From positions 1-54,929 of IMG/VR virus record IMGVR_UViG_3300029822_001021: DNA of 54,929 nucleotides. One strand, 5' to 3'. Position numbers and translations under genes: made by a program. Below are positions 1 to 51,879 of this stretch, one piece after another. Under the pieces are notes generated by a model. The model was not told where the DNA came from. It ran no database searches and saw nothing but the letters and a program-made list of their open reading frames with translations. Each line of letters opens with the position of its first letter. Position 1 is the stretch's first letter. The DNA is from a virus. Taxonomy: Duplodnaviria > Caudoviricetes.

Positions 1-27
1 GTCTTTTCCTTTCCCTAAGATATGGTC

Positions 28-56
28 ATTATATCTAGCAATTCTCGGTCAGGCAA
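28..56 (-). promoter_or_regulatory. sigmaA-like promoter for a gene starting just left of the window
   Basis: Minus strand TTGCCT-N17-TATAAT followed by GAAAGGA RBS at the window edge. Confidence 0.55.
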
Positions 57-96
57 TACCGTCAGCTTTTGGACGGTTTAAGTTGGCTGTAACACC

Positions 97-1416
97 TTAG
101 TCATCGGACGATTTAATTGCTCTCATTCTATCAAGTATATGATCAATTGGATTATATCTATCCGCATTTTCCCTTACTAATTGGATGTATCCTTGAAGCA
201 GTTGATTTGTTTCTTCTTCTCCAAGAGTAATTAGGTAATTCTCCAGTTCATCAGCATATCGTAATAACTTTTCACGATTAAACCAGTCATCTGCATGTTT
301 AACAAGATCATTAATCAAAGCATCTCTTTGTACTTGTCTCTTTTCTTCTAAATTCCGCTGTCTTTCAATATTTTCCTTCTCGATCCGTTTTTTTCTTTCA
401 ATTTCAAATTGAATCGCCCGTTTTTTCTGCTCGACTCTGTTAATTATTTCATTATTGAAACATAGTTTGCATACCTCAAGAACCATGGAAGGAATCTGAT
501 TCTCCAGCCGCTTATCATCTGAATCGCTATATGACAAGACAGTAGAAGCAGATTTGTCGGTTGAATAATACCCAGCTTTACGAACTGTCCAATTGATTTG
601 AAGCTTTCCATCGTAAACTTCTTCATATATCGGCCTTAAGTCTTGTGGGGCACCCTGCTCACATAGGTATCGCCGCTTTGTTTTTTGCTCAAATAGTTCA
701 AAAGACAAGTCGGTACTTAACAGCGTAATGGTTATGTTATCCTTAGTACCACGTTCAACCGAAAACCTAGCTCGCAATTCCTGAAAGGACTTTATAATAG
801 TATCGGCAATTCTGCAGGCACGGTTGTATTGCCTGCTTGATACACTAATGAGGATTACGGCTTCATTGTCGCGGTACTTTACTTTTTCAACCGGACTCCA
901 TATTTTGATACCTTTATCTCTGAAAGGATGTTCCTTATCTCTTGCTTCCCGATATTCCATTTCTGATTGATGTTTTGAAACTAAAGCATGGTAGTCCTGT
1001 ATCCGGCCTGGCACCTTAATATTGCTGTACCAATTTGAGAAATCTTCAAACGAGCCGGGCAAAAGCAAGTCGAAATCCTGCATGTTACTTAACTGTTCAA
1101 GGGAAAGTTCTTCAGTATCGACGAAAAGTAAAATGCTATCCTTCTTTTGGTCCTGCGGCTTTGACCCCTCAGATTTGTCTGTTTTATTACTATTATATAT
1201 AGTAGGGGGCAAGGGAACCCGTTCCGGTACAGGCTTCCCGGCCTTTACTTTTGCCCAGTACCCCACTGGTGGCAACGGTATATTCAGTGCTTTACACCTT
1301 TTACGCAAGCCGTTATCTGAAATCCCATATCTTACAGCAACAGTTGTCATGGGCTCGGACCATACTTCTTCGTACAATTTTAGTCTCATCTGCTGAATAT
1401 CTTGTGGCTCATACAT
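97..1416 (-). CDS. Hypothetical protein with N-terminal HTH-like domain and C-terminal coiled coil
   Basis: LYEEVWSEP...GISDNGLRKRCKALNIPLPPVGYWAK HTH-like segment; ATG overlaps upstream stop (TAATG), so start placed at 1416. Confidence 0.7.
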   Translation of the reverse strand: MYEPQDIQQMRLKLYEEVWSEPMTTVAVRYGISDNGLRKRCKALNIPLPPVGYWAKVKAGKPVPERVPLPPTIYNSNKTDKSEGSKPQDQKKDSILLFVDTEELSLEQLSNMQDFDLLLPGSFEDFSNWYSNIKVPGRIQDYHALVSKHQSEMEYREARDKEHPFRDKGIKIWSPVEKVKYRDNEAVILISVSSRQYNRACRIADTIIKSFQELRARFSVERGTKDNITITLLSTDLSFELFEQKTKRRYLCEQGAPQDLRPIYEEVYDGKLQINWTVRKAGYYSTDKSASTVLSYSDSDDKRLENQIPSMVLEVCKLCFNNEIINRVEQKKRAIQFEIERKKRIEKENIERQRNLEEKRQVQRDALINDLVKHADDWFNREKLLRYADELENYLITLGEEETNQLLQGYIQLVRENADRYNPIDHILDRMRAIKSSDD

Positions 1417-3077
1417 TACTGATTCCCCCCACAACAAAACGCAAATCCTGCGCGCAGCAAATTGTCAACCAATTCTTCCAGTTGGGCATCATTAGCGACG
1501 TTTTTAGGAATCATGTACCGCCGCTGATTGTCGTTAAAAACTGTTCTGAGCATAGTATAGAAATCGTCATAGGATGGATATTTGAATTTATGCAGGTACT
1601 CAGCGGTCGAATCATCGCCGATTTTTCTAAGTTTTGAGTGGAAAGAAGGCTGATTTTGGGTATTGGTGATATGTATGCTCACGATTGAATTTTTCATTTT
1701 TGTAAGCGCCCCTAATATCTCGCCTTGGCTATAGCTGTTCCTTTTACCTGCCAATAGAGCGGGAAAATCAATTGAGAATTGCAGACGCATCTTCCTTTCC
1801 CGCAGCTGAACCTTCAATTTCATTATGTCTTCAATTGTTGAGATGTAGCTGTTCGGCCTTGACCTCTGATTACCCGGCCCATTTACAATCGCTACTTTCA
1901 TACCCGTATGCTTTTTCATCTTCTTTTCAATAATGCTGCAACAGGTAAGAAACAGTTCTTCGTCAAATGAATTCGTTTTCATCGGAGCAGCTAATTCTAG
2001 TACCTTCGGTGTACCATATATTTTAAATATTTCGTTTAAACTTTTTGTCAATGATGTTATTGCTTCCGTATCTTGCCACACACTAGAATTATTTAAGGTT
2101 TCATCTGCTCTTAGAATATAAGCTCCCTTAGGCGGATTCTTTAGTTCGCCATTCATTAACACAATGTATTCAGTCTCACATTTTACATCATCAGGGTATT
2201 TTAGCCCGGCCTGTGTAACTGGCAATAGGGCGTTTATGTGCTGGACTATTTTCACTCTCCCTCTATCCACGCATAGGTTAACGTATTCAGGCCAGTAATC
2301 ATCATCATACACCATGCCAAACAGCCATTCGTGCATGACCAGCATTTCCAGTTCCCCCCGCTTGTCTTGCAGGAACGGCCGGTGTTTGTTATCTTCATAG
2401 ATCCGGTCAAGATCAAAGGGATTGTTATTATAGCGGTGATTATAATTGTTCACATAATAAGATCCTTCACCCCACTGGCCGCGTTCATATTTCACATATC
2501 GCTGATAATAAGAATAGGCATGATCATACGCAAAAGAAAATAAGTTAACGCCATACTGTCGGTAAGTGTCCCGAACCCATGCAACCAGGCTGCTGTCCAG
2601 GTGAATCATCTCCGAAGGCCCAGGTTCTTCAGTATCACATTGTTTAATCTCCGCCATTAATACTTGTATGTTACTGCGGTATTCATTCATATTTCCATTC
2701 TTGAGCTTATAGCCTGAACAGAAGTCCACGGCTGCCGACGAAAAATCGTCTTCTGAATAGAAAAACGGGTAGTAGGACAGATCTTCAAGCCACTTTTTTA
2801 CCTCTTTGTGAATGCCAATCCTCTGCTGCATATAAAAATCAAGTATGAACTCCTTGCTCTTTGGGTATTTGTTTTCGATCTCTTGCTCCAGCTTGTCCCT
2901 CTTGTGCTTCATTTTGATAGCTTCCGCGTCACAAGTCTCCAGGGTCAGGTATTCATTAAAGTAGGTCATAACATATTTAATAACTGCGGCCATATTCTCG
3001 GACTGCTTTAAATAATCGAATTCATCCATTTTGTCGGCTTTCTTCATTTTGGCAATATACTCATCGATGGTTAGCAT
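1416..3077 (-). CDS. Hypothetical protein; C-terminal half resembles a degenerate AP-endonuclease/xylose-isomerase TIM barrel
   Basis: Long ORF with GGAGGA RBS 7 nt before ATG at 3077; alternating beta/alpha pattern (VLELAAP, VAIVNG, FSIDFP, VSIHIT); fold call is tentative. Confidence 0.55.
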   Translation of the reverse strand: MLTIDEYIAKMKKADKMDEFDYLKQSENMAAVIKYVMTYFNEYLTLETCDAEAIKMKHKRDKLEQEIENKYPKSKEFILDFYMQQRIGIHKEVKKWLEDLSYYPFFYSEDDFSSAAVDFCSGYKLKNGNMNEYRSNIQVLMAEIKQCDTEEPGPSEMIHLDSSLVAWVRDTYRQYGVNLFSFAYDHAYSYYQRYVKYERGQWGEGSYYVNNYNHRYNNNPFDLDRIYEDNKHRPFLQDKRGELEMLVMHEWLFGMVYDDDYWPEYVNLCVDRGRVKIVQHINALLPVTQAGLKYPDDVKCETEYIVLMNGELKNPPKGAYILRADETLNNSSVWQDTEAITSLTKSLNEIFKIYGTPKVLELAAPMKTNSFDEELFLTCCSIIEKKMKKHTGMKVAIVNGPGNQRSRPNSYISTIEDIMKLKVQLRERKMRLQFSIDFPALLAGKRNSYSQGEILGALTKMKNSIVSIHITNTQNQPSFHSKLRKIGDDSTAEYLHKFKYPSYDDFYTMLRTVFNDNQRRYMIPKNVANDAQLEELVDNLLRAGFAFCCGGNQ

Positions 3078-3150
3078 GTTCATTCCTCCTCTGGAAATAA
3101 AATGAATTCTACTCCATGCCAATATTATAGATTATTTATCCTGCCCAAAA

Positions 3151-3188
3151 TAAAAAACCGCAGGACCGGAATTGCAGCCAGCCTGCGG
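3151..3188 (-). terminator. Intrinsic terminator after recombinase cassette
   Basis: CCGCAGG/CCTGCGG stem followed by TTTTTT on the minus strand. Confidence 0.7.
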
Positions 3189-3204
3189 ATAGTTGTTTAT
3201 ATTA

Positions 3205-4788
3205 TTAAACTTTAATTACCGTACCGTCTCTGAACGTAAAATGGATGGCATTAGCATCATGGATTATGACTTTATCAATGACTGCCAACCACAGCTTCTC
3301 GTCATACTCATCGATCGCAAGCGGGCGGGTCTCGATTTCCCGTATAAACCCATCCAGTATCAATAATTTGTTTTGGCGGTTTCGCCGCTGATCCTCTAAT
3401 TCGGCAATCCGCTCTGTTGCAATCCGGTGCCGCTCCATGTATCCCTGGTGCCGTTCGTTAAATTCATCTTGATTAATAGTAAAGCGGGCATTTTCATAAA
3501 TGGATTTTCTCGTGAGCTCGGAAACAACCTCAATTTCGCGGTGCAGTTCCGCAAGTTCCGTTTTAATTGCCGAGCAATCGCATAAGACTTCTTGGGCTAG
3601 GCGGCAGTTGGCGAGCAGCTCATCCCGGCTGCCCATCAGTATATTAAATGCTTCCAGAAACCGTTGCTTAATTTCATCTTCTGTAAGATGAGGCGTGGAA
3701 CAAGGTTTATCGTTTTTGTACTTCTCATTGCACCGCCATACCGTGCGCCGGTATTTTGTATTTGAACCCCAGACCTTGGAACCGTAAAAACCGCCGCACT
3801 CACCGCAAACGATTTTAGCCGAAAATGGGCTGTGGCAACTGACTGGCCTACCAAGTTTTTTACGCCGTTCCATTTCCAGCTGCACCGCATCAAATTCGTC
3901 CGGCTCAATAATGGCAGGATGGCTATTCTGCACATAGTATTGGGGAACTTCACCCTCGTTGACTTTGGTGGTTTTGGTGAGAAAATCCACCGTGAAGCTT
4001 TTTTGCAGCAGAGCATCACCCTTGTATTTCTCGTTAGTCAGAATGCTTATCACTGTCGCCACTTGCCAGGTTTTTTTCCCGGCTGGAGATGGGATATCCA
4101 GATTGCCAAGATGCTTAGCTATGGCTGAAGGCGTTTTACCCTCAAGAAACATTCTGTAAATCAGCCGCACTGTTTCCGCTTCCTTTTCAACGATTTTAGG
4201 TAAACCATCCTCACCCTTTTCGTAGCCAAGGAAATGACGATAAGGCATGCTTACTTTCCCATCAGCCATACGTTTGCGTTGGCCCCAGGTTACATTTTCA
4301 GAAATTGAACGGCTTTCTTCCTGCGCCAGGCTGGACATAATGGTGATTAAAAGCTCCCCCTTACTGTCCAGCGTGTAAATGTTCTCCTTTTCGAAATAAA
4401 CCTCAACGCCTTTTTCTTTTAGCTGGCGAACCGTAACCAGAGAGTCAACTGTATTTCTCGCAAAGCGGCTGACTGATTTAGTAACAATCAGATCGATTTT
4501 ACCGTCCAGTGCGTCGGCAACCATCTGCTTAAACCCATCGCGCTTTTTGGTATTAGTGGCACTGATACCTTCATCGGTGTAGATTCCGGCAAATATCCAA
4601 TCAGCACGTTCGTTGATGTATTTGGTGTAGTAGTCTACCTGGGCTTCGTAGCTGGTAAGCTGTTCCTCAGAATCTGTTGAAACACGAGCATATGCAGCTA
4701 CTTTTTTTCTTGCAGCCACACCAGTCGTTTCCGGTGTAAAGCGGTTTATGGTTGGTGGTATGACAGTAACGGCTCGAGCGGGTTTCAT
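3205..4788 (-). CDS. Large serine recombinase (resolvase, recombinase and Zn-ribbon domains)
   Basis: AAYARVST catalytic Ser, KSVSRFARN, CGECG...WRC...C zinc ribbon, coiled coil. Confidence 0.95.
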   Translation of the reverse strand: MKPARAVTVIPPTINRFTPETTGVAARKKVAAYARVSTDSEEQLTSYEAQVDYYTKYINERADWIFAGIYTDEGISATNTKKRDGFKQMVADALDGKIDLIVTKSVSRFARNTVDSLVTVRQLKEKGVEVYFEKENIYTLDSKGELLITIMSSLAQEESRSISENVTWGQRKRMADGKVSMPYRHFLGYEKGEDGLPKIVEKEAETVRLIYRMFLEGKTPSAIAKHLGNLDIPSPAGKKTWQVATVISILTNEKYKGDALLQKSFTVDFLTKTTKVNEGEVPQYYVQNSHPAIIEPDEFDAVQLEMERRKKLGRPVSCHSPFSAKIVCGECGGFYGSKVWGSNTKYRRTVWRCNEKYKNDKPCSTPHLTEDEIKQRFLEAFNILMGSRDELLANCRLAQEVLCDCSAIKTELAELHREIEVVSELTRKSIYENARFTINQDEFNERHQGYMERHRIATERIAELEDQRRNRQNKLLILDGFIREIETRPLAIDEYDEKLWLAVIDKVIIHDANAIHFTFRDGTVIKV

Positions 4789-6095
4789 TTCAAATCTCCC
4801 CTTTGATATGCAAGCGTCCTTTCCCGCGCCTGCTGTTTCTTTTTGTCGTCCCAGCTAGATTTGCGTGACCGGTCTTGCCAGGCGGCTTCAACTTTATGAC
4901 CGTCTTGAAAAATATAAATTACCTTGTTTGCTTGCGGCACCTGCAGCTGCTTAATCTGGGATCGGAAAACCACCTCATCAAATTCCGCCAGGCCCAACAC
5001 TTCAGCGGTCAGCGACAATAAGATTGGTTCTGGAATCTGTTTGGCTGGGCAGGCGTCCTTGCCGTAGTGGACGAATGTGGAACAATTCCAGGCTGCATGC
5101 CCCTTGTAGGTTACCCGCCGGTAGTTCTTGCCGCAGTGGGGGCAGAAGATTAAGCCTGAAAATGGGTAACGGTTGGCCGGGTTTTTTTTCACATTTCTAT
5201 TCTCCCGGCGAAGAGCCATAATTTCCTGCGCCTTTTGAAAGGTGAGAGGGTCTATAATCGGCGGATGGGTTCCTTCGGCATAGTACTTTGGCAAGGTTCC
5301 CCGGTTATAAATCAGCTTCTTTGACAAGTGGTCGGCTACATACTTTTTCTGAAGCAGCGCGTTGCCAGAATATTTCTCGTTATTTAGGATGGCCAGGACC
5401 CGCTTTGCTGTCCACTGTCTGCCGCTGAACGTTCGAGCACCCATTTCCCGCAGCCTGGCAGCAATCCGATCGCAACCCAGGCCTTTTATGTAATCTGCGT
5501 AGATTATTCGAACGATTTCGGCCTGTTCCTGATCGATTTCAATTTGACCATGGTTGATTCGATACCCGTACATGAAACGCAGGTTTACAATTTCACCTTG
5601 CTGGAACCGCTTGCGAATCCTCCACTTGCAGTTCTCACTAACCGAACGGCTTTCCTCCTGAGCATAGGATGCCAGGATGGTTAGCATAAGTTCGCCATCC
5701 CCGCTCATGGAATGAATATTCTGCTCCTCAAAATAAACGTCAACACCGAGCAGTTTTAGTTCCCGCACCGTTTCAAGAAGTGTTACCGTGTTGCGGGCAA
5801 AGCGTGATATCGATTTTGTAATGATCAGGTCAATCTTACCATCTTTGCAGTCAGCAATTAGACGCTGAAACTCCGGACGAGTATCTTTGGTTCCTGTCAG
5901 TGCCTCGTCGGCGTATACACCAGCATATTCCCAATCCATGCGCTGCTGAATATGGTTGCTGTAATAGCTGACTTGAGCTGCCAGAGAATGTAACATCGCA
6001 TCTTTTCCGGATGATACGCGGGCATAAGCGGCAACCCGTAATCTAGCCGGGATTGGTGGCACCGAAGGGGATATTTTCGTAACTATCTTTTCCAT
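4785..6095 (-). CDS. Large serine recombinase
   Basis: AAYARVSS, KSISRFARN, CPHCG...WNC...C zinc ribbon; 4-nt overlap with partner gene. Confidence 0.95.
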   Translation of the reverse strand: MEKIVTKISPSVPPIPARLRVAAYARVSSGKDAMLHSLAAQVSYYSNHIQQRMDWEYAGVYADEALTGTKDTRPEFQRLIADCKDGKIDLIITKSISRFARNTVTLLETVRELKLLGVDVYFEEQNIHSMSGDGELMLTILASYAQEESRSVSENCKWRIRKRFQQGEIVNLRFMYGYRINHGQIEIDQEQAEIVRIIYADYIKGLGCDRIAARLREMGARTFSGRQWTAKRVLAILNNEKYSGNALLQKKYVADHLSKKLIYNRGTLPKYYAEGTHPPIIDPLTFQKAQEIMALRRENRNVKKNPANRYPFSGLIFCPHCGKNYRRVTYKGHAAWNCSTFVHYGKDACPAKQIPEPILLSLTAEVLGLAEFDEVVFRSQIKQLQVPQANKVIYIFQDGHKVEAAWQDRSRKSSWDDKKKQQARERTLAYQRGDLK

Positions 6096-6121
6096 AATGA
6101 CCTCCTTTCGCTATGACATAT

Positions 6122-6147
6122 TCGCTCCAAAAGCCCATATTATCAAG
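6122..6147 (-). promoter_or_regulatory. Promoter-like motif CTTGA-N15-GAGCGA upstream of recombinases
   Basis: Same spacing and near-identical boxes as the copy at 26015-26040. Confidence 0.5.
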
Positions 6148-6310
6148 CGTTTTGGCGATATATGCTGCGCTCGGAAAGCCCATATTTTTGAGCGATAGTT
6201 GCCTCAATTTTCATCAATTCATCTTCTCGGATAATGCCTGCTGCAAGCCATCTATTGAAGACTGCCATGGTAGCCGTATAGTAGATGACTGCTAATGTCT
6301 TACTACTCAT
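6143..6310 (-). CDS. Small SHOCT-like protein of the recombinase cassette
   Basis: MSSKTLAVIYYTATM...GIIREDELMKIE; GGAGG-like RBS (GAAGGCGGTG); typical position before twin recombinases. Confidence 0.65.
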   Translation of the reverse strand: MSSKTLAVIYYTATMAVFNRWLAAGIIREDELMKIEATIAQKYGLSERSIYRQNA

Positions 6311-6710
6311 GCCGCACCGCCTTCGACCTGCCGTAGCAAGCGCGGGAGCAGTATTTGCGCTTCTTGTTTCCATAGCTTTCAAAATCACGGCCACATATAG
6401 GGCAGGTAAAAGTATAAATGGCTTTACGGTTGACGGCTTCCGGGTGATCGTTCCACCAGGCCATGCGGCATTTATCCGAGCAGAACCGTTTCTGCTTCAC
6501 TCCAGCGGTCTGGATAAGGGGGGTTCTGCACTGTCGGCAAAGAATTCCGTCCCTCTGAAAGAAGATTTCTTTATTAGCACTACCAAGATTGTTCCTACGG
6601 CAGAAAGACTTCACCGTATTTTCCGAAATACCAAGAGCTGTCGATATTTTTGAATAGCTTAAACCGTCCCGTCGCATTAAAATGATTTTCTCTTTTTGCT
6701 GTTGATTCAT
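6303..6710 (-). CDS. HTH plus Cys-rich zinc-finger protein (possible recombination directionality/regulatory factor)
   Basis: SYSKISTALGISENTVKSFCRR HTH; CRQC, FCSDKC, CPIC, YCSRAC motifs; GGAGG RBS before ATG at 6710. Confidence 0.75.
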   Translation of the reverse strand: MNQQQKEKIILMRRDGLSYSKISTALGISENTVKSFCRRNNLGSANKEIFFQRDGILCRQCRTPLIQTAGVKQKRFCSDKCRMAWWNDHPEAVNRKAIYTFTCPICGRDFESYGNKKRKYCSRACYGRSKAVRHE

Positions 6711-6720
6711 TACAATACCT

Positions 6721-6783
6721 CCTCCGAAGGCAAACCTTAAAAGCCTTCGGTATAAGCCGCAGGAGGAGCAAGAATCGGACGGT
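6721..6783 (-). promoter_or_regulatory. Repeated promoter+hairpin element, copy A
   Basis: ACCGTCCGATT-N14-GGC-N7-GAAGGC-loop-GCCTTCGG; matches copies at 34615 and 38862. Confidence 0.7.
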
Positions 6784-6851
6784 ATCAAAAATATTTCACC
6801 GTCATTACCTCCCACCGATATACGAAAAATTTGCGGGAGTCGAACCCCAGC

Positions 6852-6894
6852 AAAAAGAAAAAGCCCGCAGAGCAGGATGATTTGCTCCACGGGC
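6852..6894 (-). terminator. Intrinsic terminator ending the late/lysis operon
   Basis: GCCCGTGGAGCA/TGCTCTGCGGGC stem then TTTTTCTTTTT. Confidence 0.8.
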
Positions 6895-6925
6895 GATTGC
6901 TTCAGAATAATAGTATTCAATGTTG

Positions 6926-7624
6926 TTAAGAAGAAATATATTCAGCCATTCGTTCAATAAGTAGTCCGGCATATTCTCCCTTAATGGTTTTACCCGGCCG
7001 GGCATTTTCCAGCCAATATTCGGGGGATTTAAGTATACCGTTTCTTACCAACACCTCCAAAGCTCCTTCCAGACCATTCTGGCTCTCTTCTATGTATGCT
7101 AACCCCAGTTGGGAAAGGATAGCGCCAGCAACTGCTTTGACAATTTCATCTCTCTTGGCATCAAACAGTGCATTGTCCTGGCTGTTATCAATAAAGCCGA
7201 TTTCAATTAAAACTGCAGGAGCCTTGGTTTCTCTTAAGACTTGATAATTAGCAGTTTTCACCCCCCGGTTTGCAAAACCGACCCCCACCAGGGAGCTTTG
7301 AATTTTTTCAGCCAGCCCCTTTGACTTGGCTCCCGGATTCAAATAAGTGTAAGTTTCCACACCGGCAGCCGCCTCCGGTTTAAAAGCATTACGGTGAAAG
7401 GATATGAAGTAATCAAAGCTGCCCTTGTTTTCAAAATCACATCTAGCTTTCAGGCTTACACTAACATCAGCCGTCCTGGTCTCATCGATGATTACTCCAT
7501 GGCGTCTCAACACTGCTGCTACGGCCCGACCTAGGCTCAGCACATCATCGGCTTCTTTTCTTCCTTTATATACTGCACCCGGGTCATTGCCGCCATGACC
7601 GTAGTCGAAACATAATCTAGCCAT
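6926..7624 (-). CDS. Endolysin, N-acetylmuramoyl-L-alanine amidase (Amidase_3)
   Basis: DYGHGG, E, SFHRNA and LIEIGF zinc-amidase motifs. Confidence 0.92.
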   Translation of the reverse strand: MARLCFDYGHGGNDPGAVYKGRKEADDVLSLGRAVAAVLRRHGVIIDETRTADVSVSLKARCDFENKGSFDYFISFHRNAFKPEAAAGVETYTYLNPGAKSKGLAEKIQSSLVGVGFANRGVKTANYQVLRETKAPAVLIEIGFIDNSQDNALFDAKRDEIVKAVAGAILSQLGLAYIEESQNGLEGALEVLVRNGILKSPEYWLENARPGKTIKGEYAGLLIERMAEYISS

Positions 7625-8018
7625 TAATCTTTTCCTCCTTATTCAGCTGGTCCAAAACCAGTTTGAGTTTCTCCGGAATAGGCAGGCCGATCTTGGCTGC
7701 GTTTTCCAGAATACTGATCCCTTCGTTAGATAAATAGAAGAAGATGACCGCGGTACGGACAGCACTACCGTTTGTTATTACCTGGGCGTCGATAATGTGT
7801 CCCACTGCCACCAGGGAAAAAATCAGCACCTTCTTAAAGATGCCCCTGGCACCGACCTCGCTGGAAAGGCGTTTTTCCAGTATGGCCAACATGACGCCGG
7901 TCAGGTAATCGATAACCACAAAGGTAATCAGTGCGTATAAAAAGCCGTCCCAGCCTCCCAAAACCCAGCCCAGCCAGCCGCCAAAGGCTGTTAAGGCGAT
8001 TTGAAATGAGCTTTTCAT
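7617..8018 (-). CDS. Phage holin
   Basis: Hydrophobic helices; IDYLTG and NEGISILEN motifs of the toxin-secretion/phage lysis holin family. Confidence 0.9.
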   Translation of the reverse strand: MKSSFQIALTAFGGWLGWVLGGWDGFLYALITFVVIDYLTGVMLAILEKRLSSEVGARGIFKKVLIFSLVAVGHIIDAQVITNGSAVRTAVIFFYLSNEGISILENAAKIGLPIPEKLKLVLDQLNKEEKING

Positions 8019-8083
8019 TGTTAGTCCTCCTTAAAATTGGCAATAAAAAAGAGCCCTATGGCCCATTCTGAAAAAGCTGCCGA

Positions 8084-8503
8084 TTATTCGATAGCTGATG
8101 CAATCCTGCCTGACACTTCCTTTTGTATATCAGTTGGCACCTGATCAATGGTTCTCCTTCCTGCCAGCACCAATTCAGCCATCAATTCAGTGCTGACCGT
8201 GCCGGGATTTGCCTCCGAAAGTTTAGCTACAGCCTCCATCAGTACTAAACTATACTTTTCAAGCTTGGCTACTTTTTCGTCCAGCGTTATATTTCTGCCG
8301 CCGCTTACTTTGTTATTCCATTCAGCAGTCGGTATCAGTTCCAGATGGCATCCTTCTTTATTTACAACCTTTATAGACTCGTAATTGGACAAATTGAGTT
8401 CAGGATCATTGGCAAAGACATAGTCCTGTCCTGGAGCCAGCACCGGTTCAGTCTCAGATGCTTGCACTACTAAACCGTCGTTCTTGTTATATACTAAAAA
8501 CAA
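8084..8503 (-). CDS. Hypothetical phage protein, possible tail-fibre assembly factor
   Basis: Position after the last tail gene; C-terminal LVLAGRRTIDQVP motif. Confidence 0.55.
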   Translation of the reverse strand: MFLVYNKNDGLVVQASETEPVLAPGQDYVFANDPELNLSNYESIKVVNKEGCHLELIPTAEWNNKVSGGRNITLDEKVAKLEKYSLVLMEAVAKLSEANPGTVSTELMAELVLAGRRTIDQVPTDIQKEVSGRIASAIE

Positions 8504-8521
8504 TAAGTCTGCCTCCCTTCG

Positions 8522-9049
8522 TTAATACCTGTAGATTTCCAGCTTGCCAACCATAGACCCGCCGCCCCCACTGGAAACAGAAAAATATATGGTGACAGAT
8601 AGGGAAGAGCGAAAAGGGATAGATAAATTGGCTCTGCTGTCAATTACGTTGAGTTTTCCCGTTGAATCAGCAAACAAAATAACATCAGATGCTCCCCAGG
8701 CTACACTACCATTCACAGAACCAAAGGCAGGTAGGGCCATTCCGTCAACTGTTACGGTAGCCCGGCATCTACTGGTCCATGAGGATGAACCACTGGCTTG
8801 TATATATATGTTTTGCAATATACCTGCGCCATTGTAGGAAATGGTTACACTTTGTTCAGTACTGTTCCAGCCGCTAGTGTTTGATGATATAGTGCTTAAT
8901 TGCATGATGGTGTAGTTCTTTATATAATTTTGCATAACATCTTTCAGGTTGCCGATTTTGGCATGTAGACTACCCGCCGGATCAGCAGCATCGTTCCTTA
9001 CTCCGACCTGTCTGCGGATAAAAGCCAGAATTTCTTCTGAGCCAAACAT
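8522..9049 (-). CDS. Putative receptor-binding/tail fibre protein
   Basis: Short helical N-terminus then Ser/Gly/Thr-rich beta domain; TAATG coupling to upstream gene. Confidence 0.5.
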   Translation of the reverse strand: MFGSEEILAFIRRQVGVRNDAADPAGSLHAKIGNLKDVMQNYIKNYTIMQLSTISSNTSGWNSTEQSVTISYNGAGILQNIYIQASGSSSWTSRCRATVTVDGMALPAFGSVNGSVAWGASDVILFADSTGKLNVIDSRANLSIPFRSSLSVTIYFSVSSGGGGSMVGKLEIYRY

Positions 9050-9780
9050 TACACCACCCCCCGTTTTAATATTTCGCCTGACCATTGATAGGTCTTGATC
9101 TGTCTGACCCCGCCTATAAAACCGGAAGCAGGGGGCAGGTACCGGTAGGCTTTGGAGATTAGATCACCGTCCCATATAAGCCACGTAACGGCGTTGTAGC
9201 CATAAATGCCATGTAAAAGGTTGCCCGTTTCCCCGTTATATACGCTGAAGTGGATGGCGTTCTCCGCTGTCCAGGCTCCGCTGTTTCCCGCTCTTTTGTA
9301 AGTTGGGTATAAAGAGTCTTGAATGGTTTCCCCATGCAGGTGGAAATGGTTATCAGCATCCCCGGCTTTTTTAATAATCAGCCAGTAGTAAGCGCCGCTC
9401 ACCAGGTCAGATATATCTATAGGGATGCTGAAATATCCCTTGCTGGTGGGAATAAACTCTTTGGGCAGCACCATGAATCTGAGCAACGAACCCGCCGTTG
9501 AACCGTCCGGATTAAAGCCGTCCCGCAGTTCGACCAAGAGATCAGCACCCTGACCATGCCTGATAATTTCAAAGGTCACTCTCGCGATAGCGGCAGCGGC
9601 ATCGGCTTTAAACCGCACCGCATGGTCATAACCGGCACAGTCAAATTCAGCTATGCCCGCGCCGGTTTTGCCACCAAAAGCGGTGCCTTCATAAATATGC
9701 GAGAATTCCTGCATCATCATAGCAGCATTAGCCAGGTTCTCATCGATTACGGTTCGGCCGCTTTCAGCTGCAAACAACAC
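9049..9780 (-). CDS. Tail/baseplate-associated hypothetical protein
   Basis: ORF in tail module, beta-rich; GGGGTG RBS before GTG at 9780. Confidence 0.55.
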   Translation of the reverse strand: MLFAAESGRTVIDENLANAAMMMQEFSHIYEGTAFGGKTGAGIAEFDCAGYDHAVRFKADAAAAIARVTFEIIRHGQGADLLVELRDGFNPDGSTAGSLLRFMVLPKEFIPTSKGYFSIPIDISDLVSGAYYWLIIKKAGDADNHFHLHGETIQDSLYPTYKRAGNSGAWTAENAIHFSVYNGETGNLLHGIYGYNAVTWLIWDGDLISKAYRYLPPASGFIGGVRQIKTYQWSGEILKRGVV

Positions 9781-9792
9781 AAAAATCACCCC

Positions 9793-10203
9793 CTACTGCA
9801 GAGTAAGCCTGCATTCCACTGTCAAAATCATCTGGTTTTCCTTGCCCCAGGGCACTTTTAAGAGGTTAAACATAATGCCTGAACCGGGTGCATCACTGGC
9901 GTCAGTAAAGATACAGGTCTTTTGGTGCTGCCCATTGCCTTCTCCAGACAAGAGCACCGTCCTGAAGCGGATTATGTTGCCGGATTGGGTCACCACCGAT
10001 ACCGCCTTGCGGTAAACTTCGGATATGGTATCCCCTTCGGTCGTATCATCACCAATAACGAGATAGGGGCTGGAGAGTCCGGCCAGCTTCTGGGCGGCAA
10101 TATTTAAACCTGCGCTGGTAACATAGTTTCTTAAAGGGCCGAAAACTTTGCCGTCCCCATATTCCAAGTACCATTCTGATTTAAGGCTGATAGTATCTTT
10201 CAT
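9793..10203 (-). CDS. Tail-associated protein (fibre-anchor-like)
   Basis: NYVTSAGLN...YLVIGD...EVYRKAV pattern typical of phage fibre N-terminal modules. Confidence 0.55.
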   Translation of the reverse strand: MKDTISLKSEWYLEYGDGKVFGPLRNYVTSAGLNIAAQKLAGLSSPYLVIGDDTTEGDTISEVYRKAVSVVTQSGNIIRFRTVLLSGEGNGQHQKTCIFTDASDAPGSGIMFNLLKVPWGKENQMILTVECRLTLQ

Positions 10204-10204
10204 G

Positions 10205-10546
10205 TCACACCACCCCGTATTGGCCCAGAACCACCGTCAGGCCAACCAGCGAGTCGGCTTCATCTGGCGATTTGTAGTTAAAGACCTGCACGTTGGCTTT
10301 TTGATAGGTCCTGAATTTGATAAAGCCCGGGAAAGGTACTGTTACAGCTTCGGAAAAGTCCACATCCGCCCATGGGCTCCACTGGCTGCCATCAATACTT
10401 GTTGATATCTGCAACCCCCTAGGCAATGACTTAGCTTGGGTCTGGGGATAGATGCGGGCCAGGCTGCCAATAGTGGGGACAGCTTGGCTCTCCGGTTGCG
10501 GGATGTGTTCAAGCCCCCACTTATGCATTTCCCATATCATAGCCAT
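10205..10546 (-). CDS. Hypothetical tail protein
   Basis: Tightly packed ORF with AGGAG RBS. Confidence 0.6.
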   Translation of the reverse strand: MAMIWEMHKWGLEHIPQPESQAVPTIGSLARIYPQTQAKSLPRGLQISTSIDGSQWSPWADVDFSEAVTVPFPGFIKFRTYQKANVQVFNYKSPDEADSLVGLTVVLGQYGVV

Positions 10547-10557
10547 AGCCTAACCTC

Positions 10558-11169
10558 CTATGTGATATCCTCAGCTGTAATCACCGCCAGTATTGACCAT
10601 AGGCCGACACTGGTGTTGGTTATCTGTTTGATACTGAAACCTTCTCCTGGCCGTATACATAAAGGCTTAACGTCCATTCCCCGGGGGATCATATTGAAAT
10701 CCAGCAAAGGAGTGGCATTAAGGGTCAGAGGTATTTCATCGTTATTAAGAGTTACCGGCCACAGCAAGGCACCTTCAGCAATGGTGGCTCCGGTAGCAAT
10801 ATGAATTGTCGCTGTCAAGTTAACATCGGCAGTGTCAGCTTTTTGCGGGGTTATAACCGTACCGCCGCTCTGACTGGTGGTACGCATAAAATCCAGTTCC
10901 ACCCCTACCCCGGAAACCGATGTCAGTGACATGTTGACAATGGATAGCCTAGGGACCCGAATTAAATACCCGCTGCCCGCATCGTTATATATGGAAAACA
11001 AGTGCTTGTTTTGCGCCAAAGAAACGCTGCGCGCTAAACAATAAAAGGTAGGAAGCCCTTGCAGGGCCACATACTGCTCATAGCCAGCTGTGCCTTCAAT
11101 CGCCCGATAGCGCGCGTTTAACTTTTTCCCGGTGCTGTCGGGTGGGACTTGAATATATCCGCCAGCCAT
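10558..11169 (-). CDS. Hypothetical tail protein
   Basis: Tightly packed ORF with AGGAGG RBS. Confidence 0.6.
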   Translation of the reverse strand: MAGGYIQVPPDSTGKKLNARYRAIEGTAGYEQYVALQGLPTFYCLARSVSLAQNKHLFSIYNDAGSGYLIRVPRLSIVNMSLTSVSGVGVELDFMRTTSQSGGTVITPQKADTADVNLTATIHIATGATIAEGALLWPVTLNNDEIPLTLNATPLLDFNMIPRGMDVKPLCIRPGEGFSIKQITNTSVGLWSILAVITAEDIT

Positions 11170-11173
11170 TACA

Positions 11174-12586
11174 TCAACCTCCTATCATTACTGCGCTGCT
11201 TGCACAGCTTTCGACCAACCAGGGCCGGTTTCTGCCTGCTGTAAGCAGCGCATCTTTTATCACTATGGCTTCGGTTCCATAAACGAACTTATGGATCAGT
11301 TTGGTGTCGTTCATTTTTTTCTTCTGCTGGGCGGAGACCAGGGCTTTAAGAAAATCGGCTATCCCTAAGAGACGTCCGCCGTATTCTATGGTGTATATCC
11401 AAAGACCGGCTTCACTTAAGGAGATTCCCACCTTTTGTACCAGGAAAACTGCGTTCACACCTCGTTCGGGAAGCTCAATGCTTACTAACTGTCCCGGTTC
11501 CCATCCCGGCACTGTGGTGATGAAACTGCCGCTGGTCTTAGGATTAGCCCATTCCCTAAGGTCGGCATTTCCGGCCGCTTCAGCTGCTTCAATGGTGATC
11601 AGGGTATCGTCTTTGATATAGTGCTCATACACCCCATCGCCGCCTTCCAGGGCGGCAATCGAAGCCTGGCTGGCCAAATCATCTACTACGGTAATGACAT
11701 CAATGCTTTGCCGGGCGGTAAGCGAAATGGTCACGCCACTCTCGGGCGTATCAGTATCAACTGAACAGCGCAGGTAGCCGTCGCCGAGGTTTACCAGATA
11801 ATCCTTGGCATCTTCTTCATCCACACCCTCAACACCGACGCTTTTCACAGTACCGCCCACCTGCAAGCTACATTCATTAGGAACCCAGGGGAGCACCCAG
11901 ATACGAGCCGCACCGTCTGCCTTCCATTCGATGGTCTGCGGATCGGACAGCATGCTGCCGCCCAAAACATATACGCGGTTGCGCAGTCCCTGGTGGTCGA
12001 TACTTACCTTGAAATTGCTAAACCGGCCCCCAGGCTGCAAGGTCATGGGAGCGGAAGTTCCCATTTGGGCAGGATCAAAAAAATGGACCACCTTGTAGTA
12101 GTCCACATACCACTGCCAGCCGATATAGTCGCACAGCCACTTCATACATTCCGACGGCATTTTGTAGTTGAATTCGGTGCCGGTAGACTCGATTACCGGT
12201 GCACCGCTGGCTATCCCCGCCGCCGAAAAACTGGGACAATACTTAAGCAGGATGTCGCGTACAATAGCGTCAGCACTTAAGCCCAGATAAGTTTCCACCA
12301 CCAGCTTTTTATCCATCTGCAAGGTATAGTCCTGGCAGTCAACTTTCCACACCAGAGGAGCCTTATAATTCATCAGTTCCACCCGGTCGATGGTCCCGGC
12401 AAAGAGCCGAGGCTCTGTAAGACCGCTATCCTCGATGATGACTTCACTGCCCTGCAGGGGTTTTGATCCCTTAACCAAAAACGAGCAGCTGTCTACCTGA
12501 CTGGTAAGGATTTGGCTGATATTAAGGCTCCCCCGGCGATAGTCCGGCCAGCGCTCCATCCCGGCAATCTTAAGGCTTTTAGCCAC
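11174..12586 (-). CDS. Tail tip/hub protein
   Basis: Directly after TMP; LFAGTID, WQWYVD, NRVYVLGG, EPGQLV motifs of hub-like tail proteins; GTG start overlaps TMP end. Confidence 0.7.
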   Translation of the reverse strand: MAKSLKIAGMERWPDYRRGSLNISQILTSQVDSCSFLVKGSKPLQGSEVIIEDSGLTEPRLFAGTIDRVELMNYKAPLVWKVDCQDYTLQMDKKLVVETYLGLSADAIVRDILLKYCPSFSAAGIASGAPVIESTGTEFNYKMPSECMKWLCDYIGWQWYVDYYKVVHFFDPAQMGTSAPMTLQPGGRFSNFKVSIDHQGLRNRVYVLGGSMLSDPQTIEWKADGAARIWVLPWVPNECSLQVGGTVKSVGVEGVDEEDAKDYLVNLGDGYLRCSVDTDTPESGVTISLTARQSIDVITVVDDLASQASIAALEGGDGVYEHYIKDDTLITIEAAEAAGNADLREWANPKTSGSFITTVPGWEPGQLVSIELPERGVNAVFLVQKVGISLSEAGLWIYTIEYGGRLLGIADFLKALVSAQQKKKMNDTKLIHKFVYGTEAIVIKDALLTAGRNRPWLVESCASSAVMIGG

Positions 12587-15500
12587 TGAAACGCACCCCC
12601 TTGGCCAAGAGCGTCCGGTAAATCTGTTCGCCCACATCGGCGGTGCCGCCATTGAACGTTATATTGATTTTGTTGATGGTGGTCGAGCTGTTACTTGTTG
12701 AATTAGCGGCAACCGTACCCAAGGCTAAAGGGGCAACTCCTGCTAAAGCACTCTGCAAGTCAAGACCTCTTAAATTATTTTTTAAGCTGCTATAGGCGGC
12801 CGTTATATCAACCACCCCGATTTTTATCTTGTCTACTAAAGAGGGGGAATTGCGCTGATTGGGGTCCATGCCTGAGCCCATGATGCTTCGCACTTCATCC
12901 ATGACACTTTGCAAGGCGCTCATCCTCGACTTTATGCCCCGGATTAACTCACTCATAGCCTGGATGCCATACCCGGCCGATTTTTTGACTATTTCCTCAT
13001 ACTTCTTTTCGATGGTGGCGATAGTCTCAGCGGCGTTCTTTTTAATTTCGCCGTTCTTTTCCTCCCAGGCCTTTTTGTATCTGGCCAGCTCCTCATCGGC
13101 CTTGGCTTTCATTTCCATGAGTTTGTTCTGCATTTCGATAGTCTGCTGGGTAAGTTGGTTCTGGGTTTCCAGCCTGATCTCACTTAAGCGCTGGCTTAGC
13201 TCAACCCGGGCCTGACGCATCTCGATATTGGCTTCCGCCCGGGCCTGAGCGTTTTTGGTTTTCCAAAGGCTTACATATTGATTAAGCTCATCAGTTGTCA
13301 AGGTATTTAACGCCGCGACCTGAGGAGCCGCCTTGACCCCCATCTGCCGAAGCTCGTCAATCAGTCCTTCGTCGACTCCCTTGGCGGCCAGTGACTTTAA
13401 GTTGGCCTGCCAGCTATCAAACTGACTAACCTGGTCCTCCAGATTACCAAGCAAGGACTTGCCTGATACTTTTTGTGGCTTCACTTCATCAAAAAGCCCG
13501 ATCTGGTTTTTGATGGACTCCACCTTGGCTGCATAGCTCTGCTCAAAAGCTTCGATGGCCTGGGTTTCTTTCTCTAAACCTGCTGCCGTAATAGCGGCTA
13601 ATTTATCGGACAGTTCCTGCTGCAAGGCGATTTCATCCTGGGCCAGTTTGCTTTTGACTTCCCGGCACTGGTCGGCGTACTCTTTTTCCGCTTCCAGCAG
13701 CTTGGCATTGGTTTCAGCCGTTATTTTTTCCAGGCTGTTCTTCATATCGACCAAGGTGGCAATAATGTCGGATACCGATCCTTCTATAAAGGACATTCCT
13801 TCTTGCATGCCGGTACTCAAGCCTTCGCTGATATTAAGGCCATATTCGCGCATGACCTGGGAGGGGGAGCGGATGGATAGGGCTTCTTTGATTTTGTTTT
13901 TTACCGTCTCGGCAATTTCCCCGGCGATTTCCCTGACTTTCTCAATCCGGCCTTTAATCCCGTCAATAAGGCCCTGAATAATATGAGTACCTATTTCCAG
14001 CAGCGTGTTGTGCAGGGTTCTTAGACCCTCGAAAGCGTTGACCACCACTGTCTTAATCCCATTCCACAGGGTGATGAAAATGTTTTTGATATGCTCCCAG
14101 GCCCCTTGCCAGTCTCCCTGCAAGACATCCAGGAAAAAGCCGAAGGCGTTTACAATCACTTCCGCCGCAGTCTGAAATACCGCCTTGATAATGTTCCAGA
14201 TATTGGTAAATACCACAGTGATATCTTTACCCCATTTGTCCCAGAACACTTTAATGGCGGTTCCGGCTTTGGCGATAATGTTCCCAATATCCGCCCAGAT
14301 TTCCTTGACCATGTTACGAAAGTCTTCATTGTTCTGCCAAAGCTCCTTGATAGCTAAGATTATCCCGGCAATAACGGCTGCGGCGATACCAATAGGACCG
14401 GTTAAGGCGGTAAAAGCCGCCCCCAAAGCTGCGGTAACCCCACCGGCGCTGGCGATAGCGGCTGCAGCTGTACCAACTACCCCGGAGATGGCCCCGGCGG
14501 CGGTGACCAGCTGACCGATAATGAGGACAACCGGGCCTATGGCGGCAGCCAACCCTGCCACAACCAGAATGGTTTTTTGAACGCTGGGACTTAAAGCACC
14601 AAATCTTTGCACCAGTTCATTTAATCTCTGGATTAATGGGGTTATAACCGGCAGGATATGCTGTCCCATGGTAGCCCCTAGCTCTTTTATGCTTTCGGAG
14701 AAAACCCGCATCTGGTTAGCCGTTCCCGCCCCGGTTCTCTCGAAATCCCCCTGGGCGTTCTTGGTCATGGCCAGGACATAGTTGTACCTGAGTTGGGTCT
14801 GCTCCGCCTGATTCATATCCTGGATCTTCTTTTTAATCCCCTGGCTGTAGGCGTATTCCTGCAGGTTGGCCTGGGTCATAACAATGCCTAATTCTTTTAA
14901 AGATTCGGTCTCGCCGGTAAATACCGACTTTAAAGCGGTATCCGCTATGTCGATGCTGATATTCTTAAAACTGGACAGATCTCCGGCCAAACCCACCAGG
15001 GTCTTGCTCATTTCTTCCGCCTGCGCGGTGTTAAGCCCCAAGCTGGTGGCCATATCCCCATAGGTAGCAGCCATATCCAGGGCAGTGCCCCTGGCGATGC
15101 CATAGCGTTCCAGGGTGGTATCGCTCCAGTTCTTAACGCCTTCAGCGTTATCCTGAAAGGCTACTTCCACCTTGTTTAGAGCTTCATTGGTATCTGAGGC
15201 TAGTTTCACCGCTGCGGTTCCGGCGGCTGCAAGCGGTGCGGTAACCGCTAGGGACATTCCCTGACCGGCACTGGTGATGCTGCTGCCCGCTGCTTTTAAT
15301 TTCTGGCTTGCTTCTTCGGCCTTTTTAGAGAGCTTGGTCCAGGCGGAAGCTTGCAGTTCCAGTTCCTTGGCCGTATTTTTTAGGGAGTGTTCCATATTGG
15401 CCAGAACCTTTTCGGCCTGCAGCATTTTGATCCGCAGTTTTTCCACCGCCACCGCATCCTGCTCAGTGCTGCCCGCCGCTTTGTCATAAGCATCTTTTAA

Positions 15501-15736: not shown

Positions 15737-16239
15737 TTACCAAATATCATCAATGTACCCGCTAGGATTGTTTTCAGCTTCGTTAACTACAGAGCCAACA
15801 ATGAGCAGATCCCAGAACATATCGAGCGTCATGGCGTCAATCTGGTTCGGGAGCCAGTGGTAGCTTTGGGCCAGGCTTAAATAGAAATACACCACCATTT
15901 GATAAGCCGACAGATGGCTTAGGTCAGGTCCGTCGGCGGGATTTACTTTGGGAGTTCTGCCATCTTGCGGCTGACTGCCTCGGCCACCCAGCTGGCAATC
16001 TGGTAAAAGAGAGGGACAAACTCATCCAGGTCCAGTTCTTCTTCAATAACCTCAGCGCTTATTTCCGGGTGATTAAAGGCAGCGGCGATCAAGCGTTCCA
16101 TCTCGCTTAGAGCTTCCTCATCGCCTTGCTCTTTATCGCCGAATTTATCCTTGAATTTGGTCACTTCGCGCCAGAGCTTGACCTTGGGCGGCGGCGCGGT
16201 GTATGTCTTTCCTTTAAGGGTAATCTTGGGGTTCTCCAT
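15737..16239 (-). CDS. Tail assembly chaperone G-T (-1 frameshift product)
   Basis: C CCA AAG slippery heptamer at 15946-15952; the -1 frame stays open to TAA at 15737 (...HWLPNQIDAM...YIDDIW). Confidence 0.8.
15943..16239 (-). CDS. Tail assembly chaperone G
   Basis: Small acidic ORF between major tail and TMP. Confidence 0.8.
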   Translation of the reverse strand: MENPKITLKGKTYTAPPPKVKLWREVTKFKDKFGDKEQGDEEALSEMERLIAAAFNHPEISAEVIEEELDLDEFVPLFYQIASWVAEAVSRKMAELPK

Positions 16240-18887: not shown

Positions 18888-20087
18888 CTACGCTTTCATC
18901 TTAAGTACCTTGATGGCTTCAGAGAGAATCAGCTTGCCGTCCACCCGCTGGGTTGCCTTAAATCCTACCTGACCTGTTGCCGCATAAAGCTCGTTCAGCC
19001 TTTGGAAGGAACGGCCTTGCCGATCAGCAATCCAGTAGTAGCCGAAATCACCGAAAGCGATAGTTTTAGCCCCAGCTGCGATTGCCGGTACATAGGCTGA
19101 GGTCTTGACCGGACGGTTCAAAATCGTATCCGGCTGTCCGGCAGTAATGGAGGGCTGCCACAGATACTGGCCGTTGCCGTCCTTTAACTTTCTGATGGCT
19201 TTGACAGTGGAATCGTTCATCACGAATACGGCGTTTTTGCGGTAAGGGGACTTGAGGCTGTAGAACAGATCCATGATCTCATCCACCGTAATAGCCGTTG
19301 CCGAAGCAGCAGTTACACCCAGTTCCGCTCCGCCGGTAGCATTGAAAATCCCGGTCGGCTTGCCGGTTCCGTTACCGATGAAGAAGGATTCCTCTTCCTT
19401 GGCACCGATTCTGCGGGCAAATTCCCGGGCGATATATGACTCCAGATTAAAGATGCTATCATTTAACAATTCCTCGGATACCTTGATCATGGTCGCAAGT
19501 TTGTAGGCCCCTATGGAAACCTGCCCAAAGGCATCGTCTGATTCCTGAATGGCGCCTTCTTCATCTACCCAGGAAGCAGTTCCTTTGGATGCTACGACCG
19601 GTATTTTACGATCACCGCTGGCGGTTTGGATGATCTTGGCCATGGTGCGGAAGATGTTTTCTTCTTGCAGGGCTTCGACCAGGGTACGCTCGAACTCGTC
19701 CGGCACCAGGTAGCCTCCCTCGGAATCGGTTCCCACCTGCAGCGCGTTTAATACTTCGTATCCCGCTGCCTTGCTGCGCATGGCATTCCAGAAGGCTCGT
19801 TTGTACTCGTCACTGGCCCGGCCGGTTTTATTCTCAGGGTTGGGCTGGCCGGGCTTGCCGGTAATGGGTGTATTGACGGGCTTGTTAAGCTCCGCGTCCA
19901 ATGCCTGCTGACGCTCCAGCCGATCGATTTCTTTGCCGAGATTCACCACATCGGCTTCCATCTTTTCATAGGTGGCAACGTCTTCGGCGGAAAGGAGCCC
20001 GTCAGCGCCGCGTTTGCTGTCCAGAAAGGCTTTTGCGGCATCCCAGGCTTTGGCTCTTTTCTCACGCAGTTCTAAGATTTTGCTCAT
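18888..20087 (-). CDS. Major capsid protein, HK97 family
   Basis: Delta-domain N-terminus, GGYLVP, GNGTGKPTGI, LKDGNGQYLW, FGDF. Confidence 0.95.
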   Translation of the reverse strand: MSKILELREKRAKAWDAAKAFLDSKRGADGLLSAEDVATYEKMEADVVNLGKEIDRLERQQALDAELNKPVNTPITGKPGQPNPENKTGRASDEYKRAFWNAMRSKAAGYEVLNALQVGTDSEGGYLVPDEFERTLVEALQEENIFRTMAKIIQTASGDRKIPVVASKGTASWVDEEGAIQESDDAFGQVSIGAYKLATMIKVSEELLNDSIFNLESYIAREFARRIGAKEEESFFIGNGTGKPTGIFNATGGAELGVTAASATAITVDEIMDLFYSLKSPYRKNAVFVMNDSTVKAIRKLKDGNGQYLWQPSITAGQPDTILNRPVKTSAYVPAIAAGAKTIAFGDFGYYWIADRQGRSFQRLNELYAATGQVGFKATQRVDGKLILSEAIKVLKMKA

Positions 20088-51492: not shown

Positions 51493-51628
51493 ATGTAAGA
51501 ATTTGTGCTTGAGTTTGATAGTGAGTACGATTGACTAAATCATAAAAAAAACAATATGCATAAGATCTATTGTACCCTTAAGAAGCGGAGAATGATCTGA
51601 TTATTGGGACTGTATTGGTTCGGTATAT

Positions 51629-51700
51629 TTTCAACGATTCATCCCAATCTTTCAACGATTGCCTGTTGGCGATGCACACCCCTGCTAAATTTCAACGATT
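51629..51700 (+). repeat. Three TTTCAACGATT direct repeats around TGCACACCCC; candidate element end
   Basis: Copies at 51629-39, 51650-60, 51690-700. Confidence 0.65.
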
Positions 51701-51875: not shown

Positions 51876-51879
51876 AATC

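Follow-up and report, generated by a model that had tools for sequence, protein, structure and literature searches.

A candidate two-gene defence cassette with a degenerate TIM barrel beside a prophage in a composite tmRNA-linked record

The IMG/VR virus record IMGVR_UViG_3300029822_001021, whose 54,929 nucleotides (nt) are here called the window, carries on the minus strand at its left end two genes, A and B, directly beyond a pair of phage recombinase genes. We consider, with moderate confidence, that A and B make up an autonomous mobile two-gene cassette outside the phage core, most likely encoding an undescribed defence complex directed against phages or other mobile elements. The pair is a candidate for the kind of cassette that is found in defence islands, with components that belong to no classified family.

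The first-pass annotation of the window had proposed that the two genes belong together, so that they should co-occur elsewhere and should not match housekeeping families. Relatives of A were gathered from 61 genomic and 11 viral loci, plus two annotated records. A is at least 480 amino acids (aa) long in 53 loci, and 52 of these have at least 900 nt downstream (L025 ends 49 nt past A). In 51 of the 52 the next same-strand gene after A matches the B profile, and in the sole unpaired locus, L038, A is truncated. No match of the pair to housekeeping families was found, and both expectations were thus borne out. The modelling of the full-length proteins as a complex supports binding of A and B to each other. 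The model reached a score of 0.75 in all three runs, compared to 0.35 for the best of three controls; in the rough calibration of this score, 58 of 80 solved complexes reach the mark, as against 2 of 110 mismatched pairs. At least 90% of the contacts are common to the runs, and the predicted local distance difference test (pLDDT) of the partner is at least 78. In the model, residues 164–173, 247–249 and 257–265 of B meet residues 198–218, 264–274, 295–297, 479–499 and 537–542 of A. The predicted interface uses the invariant A residues R215/Y216, E264/Y265, D538 and R542 together with the near-invariant P262 of B, while the barrel pocket residues E361, N399, D437 and H469 of A stay free.

Close to the pair we also saw a third gene, c3 (about 363 aa). 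It follows B in 13 of the 53 loci (e.g., L030:12635-13729), stands before A in L002 and L066, and adjoins in L062 a stand-alone gene for the N-terminal domain of A. The c3 protein has no Pfam match, and hhalign shows no relationship to A or to B (probability 0.2%). We class it as an accessory and not as a core part, possibly an optional third component.

The cassette moves as a unit and horizontally. Relatives of A and B are found in Clostridia, Negativicutes, Paenibacillus and a few others. The genomes of P. mellifer and P. provencensis each hold two A–B copies about 21 kb apart (L014/L015, L016/L051), and these paralogous Paenibacillus copies are 89–90% identical in DNA over the cassette only, a stretch that starts about 55 bp ahead of A and finishes with B. 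In L015, B is broken by an insertion of about 1.6 kb. Furthermore, a Cohnella plasmid (L003) and the P. mellifer chromosome share a 15.4-kb island with A–B at 99.99% identity; next to A–B the island contains RES, AAA ATPase, helicase and DUF4062 genes and three tyrosine recombinase genes, a set of neighbours seen in L003, L014 and L051.

Known defence genes recurrently surround A–B in unrelated contexts. Wadjet JetC/JetD genes lie directly upstream of A in L007, L019, L022 and L025, type I restriction-modification genes are neighbours in L017, L033 and L073, and Macro, DUF429 and ADP-ribosylglycohydrolase genes in L020, L021, L046 and L075; a Schlafen/AlbA_2 protein is found among the neighbours as well. 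In L008, whose A is 85% identical to that of the window, B is directly followed by DarT+HD and Macro genes, and in other close relatives by GmrSD (L005) or an HD/HD_assoc protein (L006). A tally drew on 50 loci, with two genes per side, namely the closest ones that encode at least 100 aa. Deduplication at 80% identity gave 156 proteins, and 136 remained without the 11 serine recombinases and the 9 c3 proteins. PADLOC matches among these 136 are REase_I, MTase_I, MkoA/C, LmuB, JetD, DarG, mad2, PbeA and PDC-M22B, with two members each, and the Pfam matches include GmrSD_N, SLFN_AlbA_2, TnsD/TniQ and Phage_integrase. The earlier view that the pair sits at a typical defence-cargo site is upheld by these neighbours and by a defence island at 40–51.5 kb of the window itself.

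That the pair could not be assigned to any known system also holds after the database searches. Neither A nor B gave a match at E ≤ 1 in Pfam (including PF01261 in the case of A), PHROGs, PADLOC-DB v2.0.0 or NCBIfam, with only sub-threshold noise, so that no component of the anti-phage systems in that PADLOC release is matched. The family profile of A found no PDB sequence at E ≤ 10, and the family profile of B gave no significant match among PDB sequences. No such system is described in the part of the literature that was available to us, and the supplementary candidate tables of the discovery papers could contain these families. All 151 clusters of the A family and all 106 of the B family (90% identity, E ≤ 1e-3) are labelled ‘hypothetical’.

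The layout of the cassette fits a compact expression unit. Gene A (553 aa) occupies 1416–3077 on the minus strand, from its ATG at 3077 to the TAA at 1418–1416, and B (439 aa) occupies 97–1416 on the same strand, with its ATG at 1416–1414 and its stop at 97–99. A ribosome-binding site AGGAGG (3090–3085, minus) precedes the ATG of A at a spacing of 7 nt, and its GGAGG is kept in relatives. Stop and start overlap in TAATG (1418–1414, minus), as translational coupling had been predicted from the letters, and such A/B junction overlaps of 4–5 nt (TAATG, ATGA, TAGTG) recur across relatives. The start of the cassette is marked by the terminator of the upstream serine recombinase gene on the minus strand. 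The stop of this gene lies at 3205; the hairpin at 3188–3158 (−18.7 kcal/mol, z −3.3, equalled by 1 of 200 shuffles) is followed by UUUUUUAUUUU, with the U-tract at 3157–3147. Just past it, 47 nt before the ATG of A, a TATAAT (3129–3124, minus) forms a candidate −10 box. Both elements had been noted in the first-pass annotation and are indeed present. The TATAAT hexamer as such does not occur above chance (22 in the window versus 30.7 ± 5.3 expected), and the promoter scan gave no acceptable −35 for it and does not list the site. We ascribe the candidate promoter role to it because of its position and conservation, not because of the hexamer frequency: among five aligned sequences, the terminator is kept in L008, L004 and L005, and TATAAT is unchanged in L008 and L004, differs at one position in L005 and is missing from L010. 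Behind B, a promoter-like TTGCCT-17-TATAAT (56–28, minus; 10 of 12 matches, by consensus match only) points off the contig end, and the left end of the contig truncates the region beyond B. The pair is AT-richer than the phage core, again as first noted, with a GC content of 0.38–0.425 over 1–3000 versus 0.45–0.54 over 3001–39000. Four metatranscriptome runs cover 3.4–20 kb and give nothing over 668–3335; their contigs are mostly 90–95% alike to the window and hence derive from related phages. These runs are uninformative on expression or its absence.

How does the cassette relate to the adjacent phage? If it were a moron, that is, a lysogenic-conversion operon of this prophage expressed from the lysogen, its place at the recombinase end of the phage with its own terminator and promoter-like signals would be readily explained. 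Moreover, with holin and amidase genes nearby, L030, L036, L070, L071 and L073 show a similar holin–amidase–recombinase–A–B order, A is present on 10 IMG/VR contigs, and the pair is also found in one deposited phage record, PV036453. This record is the only one of 50,697 deposited phage records with A, however, and the closest phages of the window lack the pair. One of them, L085, is 94.5–95.5% identical over 3260–14573 of the window and then continues into different DNA; the other, L088, is a 39.5-kb contig with about 90–94% identity in which the recombinase runs straight into a copy of the tmRNA (transfer-messenger RNA) flank (window 51673–52081, 83%). DNA similarity to the closest phages ends at about 3200–3290 of the window, and the sequence past the recombinase stop codon differs in every phage relative. 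Relatives of the adjacent recombinase are encoded on 80 viral contigs, and tblastn detected A or B in none of these; 37 of them reach at least 1 kb and 13 at least 3 kb beyond the recombinase. The GC content of the pair also fits the defence island and not the phage, and the host DNA on the other side of the record means that the record ends are not phage ends. A moron of this prophage therefore seems quite unlikely to us. The first-pass annotation had left the choice between a defence and a lysogenic-conversion module; the pair is not demonstrably phage cargo, and given the 80 related contigs without it and the host DNA in the record, a gene of the flanking island is as likely as a lysogenic-conversion gene.

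The recombinases raise another alternative, namely that the pair is an accessory of mobile elements and not of immunity, for instance in the control of integration or excision by the neighbouring recombinases, in maintenance or addiction, or in a superinfection-exclusion or anti-defence role from which the element itself profits. Of the 53 loci, 18 contain a serine recombinase gene, which in 9 of them (7 of 36 groups when A is grouped at 90% identity) lies directly upstream of A; the other 35 have none within about 10 kb. The junction of recombinase stop, terminator and A is common to the window, L004 and L005 at 73–77% DNA identity, the trios of tyrosine recombinases and the TnsD/TniQ genes are among the neighbours, and in L013 a stand-alone N-domain protein is encoded behind a serine recombinase. 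Against this, the absence of the pair from all 80 phage contigs with recombinase relatives counts again, and no recombinase goes along when the cassette is duplicated and moves. To our knowledge, the known directionality factors are small single proteins, which we also count against this explanation. On balance we hold it to be unlikely.

Next to the gene context, the proteins themselves deserve attention. The AlphaFold2 model of A (pLDDT 87.3, predicted template modelling score (pTM) 0.80) divides into two domains. The N-domain (aa 1–280; 2238–3077, minus) is predicted to be mostly helical with one beta-hairpin at 195–210. Its half of the protein had been called rich in Tyr and Asn: the tyrosine part stands, with 10.0% (13.2% in residues 160–280), and the asparagine part does not, as 5.7% is unremarkable. 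The C-domain (aa 283–546; 1440–2231, minus) is modelled as a full (beta/alpha)8 barrel of the triosephosphate isomerase (TIM) type, similar to xylose isomerase and endonuclease IV (Endo IV), with a degenerate polar site. Foldseek searches with the model gave apurinic/apyrimidinic (AP) endonucleases at the top in the PDB (E 3e-6) and in BFVD, in agreement with the AP-endonuclease pattern that was recognized at first, and the barrel can be superposed on members of the PF01261/Endo IV family. The barrel filled every Foldseek list for A, and an ESM Atlas search with residues 1–280 gave no usable match.

The best fold matches of A also include sugar epimerases and isomerases, and B has a head that resembles a helix-turn-helix (HTH). 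One could hence imagine a metabolic pair, composed of a sugar-phosphate isomerase or epimerase type of enzyme and a transcriptional regulator. This is very improbable in our opinion. A lacks a PF01261 match even at E ≤ 1, the Glu and His positions of its sister family of stand-alone barrels are lost, and half of the B proteins lack the HTH-like head. The distribution of the pair is patchy and mobile, in islands and prophage flanks, and the tallies contain no neighbours for sugar transport or catabolism.

The sister family came from a search with the A1 profile, whose alignment holds 55 of the 120 listed A matches. The search was exhaustive: out of 1.84 billion representatives it gave 395 at E ≤ 1e-3, and these include single-domain relatives of A of two kinds. 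The stand-alone N-domain family A5 (about 275 aa, 45 aligned) matches profile positions 1–266 only, and the stand-alone barrel family A4 (about 290 aa, 31 aligned) matches positions of about 325–545 only. A4 and the barrel of A align with an hhalign probability of 99.8% (E 1e-29, 266 columns). None of the 31 A4 sequences matches PF01261, and single members have DUF2797, NYN, SMEK_N or PRMT5 matches; searches of PDB sequences with the profiles A1, A2 (the B alignment, 55 of 106 B matches), A4 and A5 gave nothing credible. In none of nine viral loci does an A4 barrel have an N-domain or a B neighbour. One A4 member was seen to follow a DUF2357 gene on the Thermococcus barophilus plasmid pTBMP1 (L165).

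The comparison with A4 makes clear how much the barrel of A has lost. A4 has the invariant or near-invariant motifs EIHPP, IENRxG, LDxPQ, GIHxWGK, HxGDLN and RYFVPE, a pattern that seems to resemble the ligand-bearing strand ends of Endo IV. Endo IV uses several His ligands. The A4 residues E98, N137, D175, H211, D253 and R257 survive in A as E361, N399, D437, H469 (82%), D516 and R520. A4 H100 is replaced by A, L or T in the A family, E136 by V (44 of 55), and the Q178 position is variable (K/A); the HxGDLN segment, including H225, has no counterpart, and at the equivalent of E262 there is E in 32 of 55 A sequences and K in 17, including the window protein. The motifs EIHPP, IENR and LDxPQ accordingly read ELxxP, xVNG and IDxxx in A, and H469 is the only conserved His column of its barrel. 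Compared via A4, A does not hold the complete His/Glu/Asp metal-ligand set of the PF01261/Endo IV class, and the early impression that several metal ligands are missing proved right. Judged by these sequences, A is most likely a pseudo-enzyme, or else an enzyme with a different, reduced site.

The stand-alone N-domain genes are found at prophage ends in L013, L058 and L074. Divergent B-like genes were seen near such genes at L052:8954-9844 (E 2.8e-21) and L074:1438-2736 (E 5.2e-11). Their presence there hints that the partnership of N-domain and B is older than the fusion to the barrel.

The AlphaFold2 model of B has a pLDDT of 84.6 and a pTM of 0.58. It begins with the HTH-like head (aa 1–60; 1237–1416, minus) of three helices (4–43), which has an invariant PLPPxGYWAK-type stretch, and continues through a linker (74–92) that is disordered in the model into a central alpha/beta domain (aa ~100–300; 517–1119, minus) with two very long strands and finally into long C-terminal helices that form a coiled-coil hairpin (aa 304–436; 109–507, minus). 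R199 and E243 of the core are invariant, and D226, K247, R249 and P262 are near-invariant. The head is present in 25 of 51 B homologues; the other 26 (317–353 aa) begin at profile positions of about 87–117, which shows that the head is dispensable for the core function. ESM Atlas searches with B returned unnamed ‘hypothetical’ clusters only. We also considered the core as a PD-(D/E)xK nuclease (D226 ... E243-x-K) and rejected this, because just 24 of 55 sequences keep K245 and no match by fold speaks for it.

Several points weigh against a defence complex. The candidate role is read from sequence, models and gene context, and we found no nuclease, nucleoside triphosphatase, TIR, SIR2 or other familiar effector domain in A or B. 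The association with defence islands is a qualitative one without a null model, the PADLOC tally does not give the share of the 136 neighbours with any defence match, and the PADLOC-DB used is the 2023 release, with newer systems outside its coverage. Defence islands and prophage ends also gather anti-defence genes, addiction modules and junk. The complex score was obtained from unpaired alignments, which makes its calibration only rough; the predicted folds of the A N-domain and of the B core are known only within the full-length models, and the barrel of A may be a pure scaffold.

If A and B do form a defence complex, the models suggest how it could be built. The hairpin tip 257–265 of B and its residues 164–173 would dock in the groove between the N-domain and the barrel of A. 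The barrel probably descends from stand-alone barrels with the complete polar, metal-type motif set, of which about half would have been lost. Because of this loss, binding of a DNA or sugar-phosphate ligand by A is more likely than its cleavage, and A would act as a sensor; the conserved pocket that is kept free of the partner likewise leads us to read the barrel as a binding module. The coiled coil of B may multimerize the complex, and the HTH-like head, in the half of the family that has it, may tether the complex to DNA or autoregulate the cassette. For the output one may speculate about growth arrest or an attack on the invading DNA, with the D226/E243/K247/R249 cluster of B or the invariant Tyr/Trp-rich surface of the A N-domain as possible effectors. 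A more far-reaching and, as we see it, doubtful proposal is that A–B represents a new class of immune system built on a pseudo-enzyme. Here the Endo IV-like barrel, having lost its metal site, would recognize DNA that is abnormal through abasic, modified or ADP-ribosylated sites, or else intermediates of phage replication. The Tyr-rich domain would hold the barrel, the signal would pass to the coiled-coil partner and the B core would be the effector, and the A4 barrels would be a separate family of intact nucleases in similar conflict contexts.

How does A–B compare with known systems? With Endo IV (AP endonuclease family 2) and the sugar epimerases of PF01261, A shares the xylose isomerase-like TIM-barrel fold; it differs by the absence of a sequence-profile match, by its one conserved His column, and by the additional 280-aa N-domain and obligate partner. 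The A4 barrels are true homologues of the A C-domain with E, N, D, H, D and R in corresponding places, in contrast to which A has partly lost the motif set; in the nine viral loci, A4 has neither N-domain nor B neighbour. As a class, two-gene defence cassettes such as Hachiman, Gabija and DarTG are similar in character. A–B is likewise compact, coupled, low in GC, patchy and mobile, is found at prophage ends and beside defence systems, and is predicted to form a heteromeric complex. Unlike them it lacks PADLOC-DB homology and a recognizable ATPase, helicase, nuclease or NADase effector, and its activity is putative. A TIM-barrel protein in a defence operon is also known from QatABCD, where QatD is reported to be a TatD-type TIM-barrel nuclease (PMC13434339, PMC13376578). 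QatD belongs to a different barrel superfamily (TatD amidohydrolase-like, HxH motif), is catalytically intact and is part of a four-gene system; its comparison with A–B comes from the PADLOC scan only. Type II toxin–antitoxin pairs consist of a small toxin and a small DNA-binding antitoxin, for which sizes of 553 and 439 aa are atypical.

The record as a whole, deposited in IMG/VR, is mixed and not purely viral in composition. It is a tmRNA-linked composite of host DNA, defence island, prophage and cassette, and no clean phage genome. The phage block spans about 3.2–39 kb. At its cassette side lie two tandem large serine recombinase genes (Resolvase + Recombinase + Zn_ribbon_recom; 3205–4788 and 4785–6095), preceded by the gene for a 205-aa HTH/zinc-ribbon protein (6303–6920), a trio whose order is also present in L008. 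At the far end of the block, a DUF2800/PD-(D/E)xK protein (37214–38341, E 1.6e-162) was seen, which probably belongs to the phage replication/recombination module. The island at 40–51.5 kb runs on the plus strand with a GC content of about 0.40–0.43 and encodes, all on this strand, an ABC-3C CTD11 protein (40142–41380), the DUF2326 protein of ABC-3C (41560–43233), an N6/N4 DNA methylase (type III methylase; 43237–45687), a type III ResIII helicase/restriction subunit (45688–48195) and a SIR2_2 (SIR2-like) protein of 1047 aa (48349–51492). The host genes for tmRNA (51880–52231, Rfam 181.5 bits), SmpB (52362–52835) and RNase R (53104–54912) follow. This composite nature matters to anyone who treats the ends of the record as phage ends.

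Around the tmRNA we made some further observations. About 200 bp past its 3′ end (window 51600–51720) there are three TTTCAACGATT repeats. In the related phage L088 (11580–11720), the recombinase end is joined to this same flank, so that the site may be a hot spot of integration. The phage of the window has the opposite orientation and lies about 12 kb away from it. L008 has copies of the tmRNA flank at 15810–15878 and 19629–19750, about 2.9 and 6.7 kb beyond B and after the DarT/Macro genes, with 94% identity over 69 bp to 51804–51872 of the window; they may mark the far boundary of a composite tmRNA island. Direct repeats of the att type were not found in the window, and none are expected for serine integrases.

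In summary, the analysis brought out three families for which the databases hold no model: A in its full length, and the N-domain and the barrel each as a protein of its own. Should the cassette prove protective against phages, it would be a further defence system, one in which no component is recognizable, carried by Clostridia, Negativicutes and Paenibacillus, bacteria whose immune repertoires are poorly explored. If our reading of the barrel is true, A would be a repair-type TIM barrel that was turned into a non-catalytic sensor.

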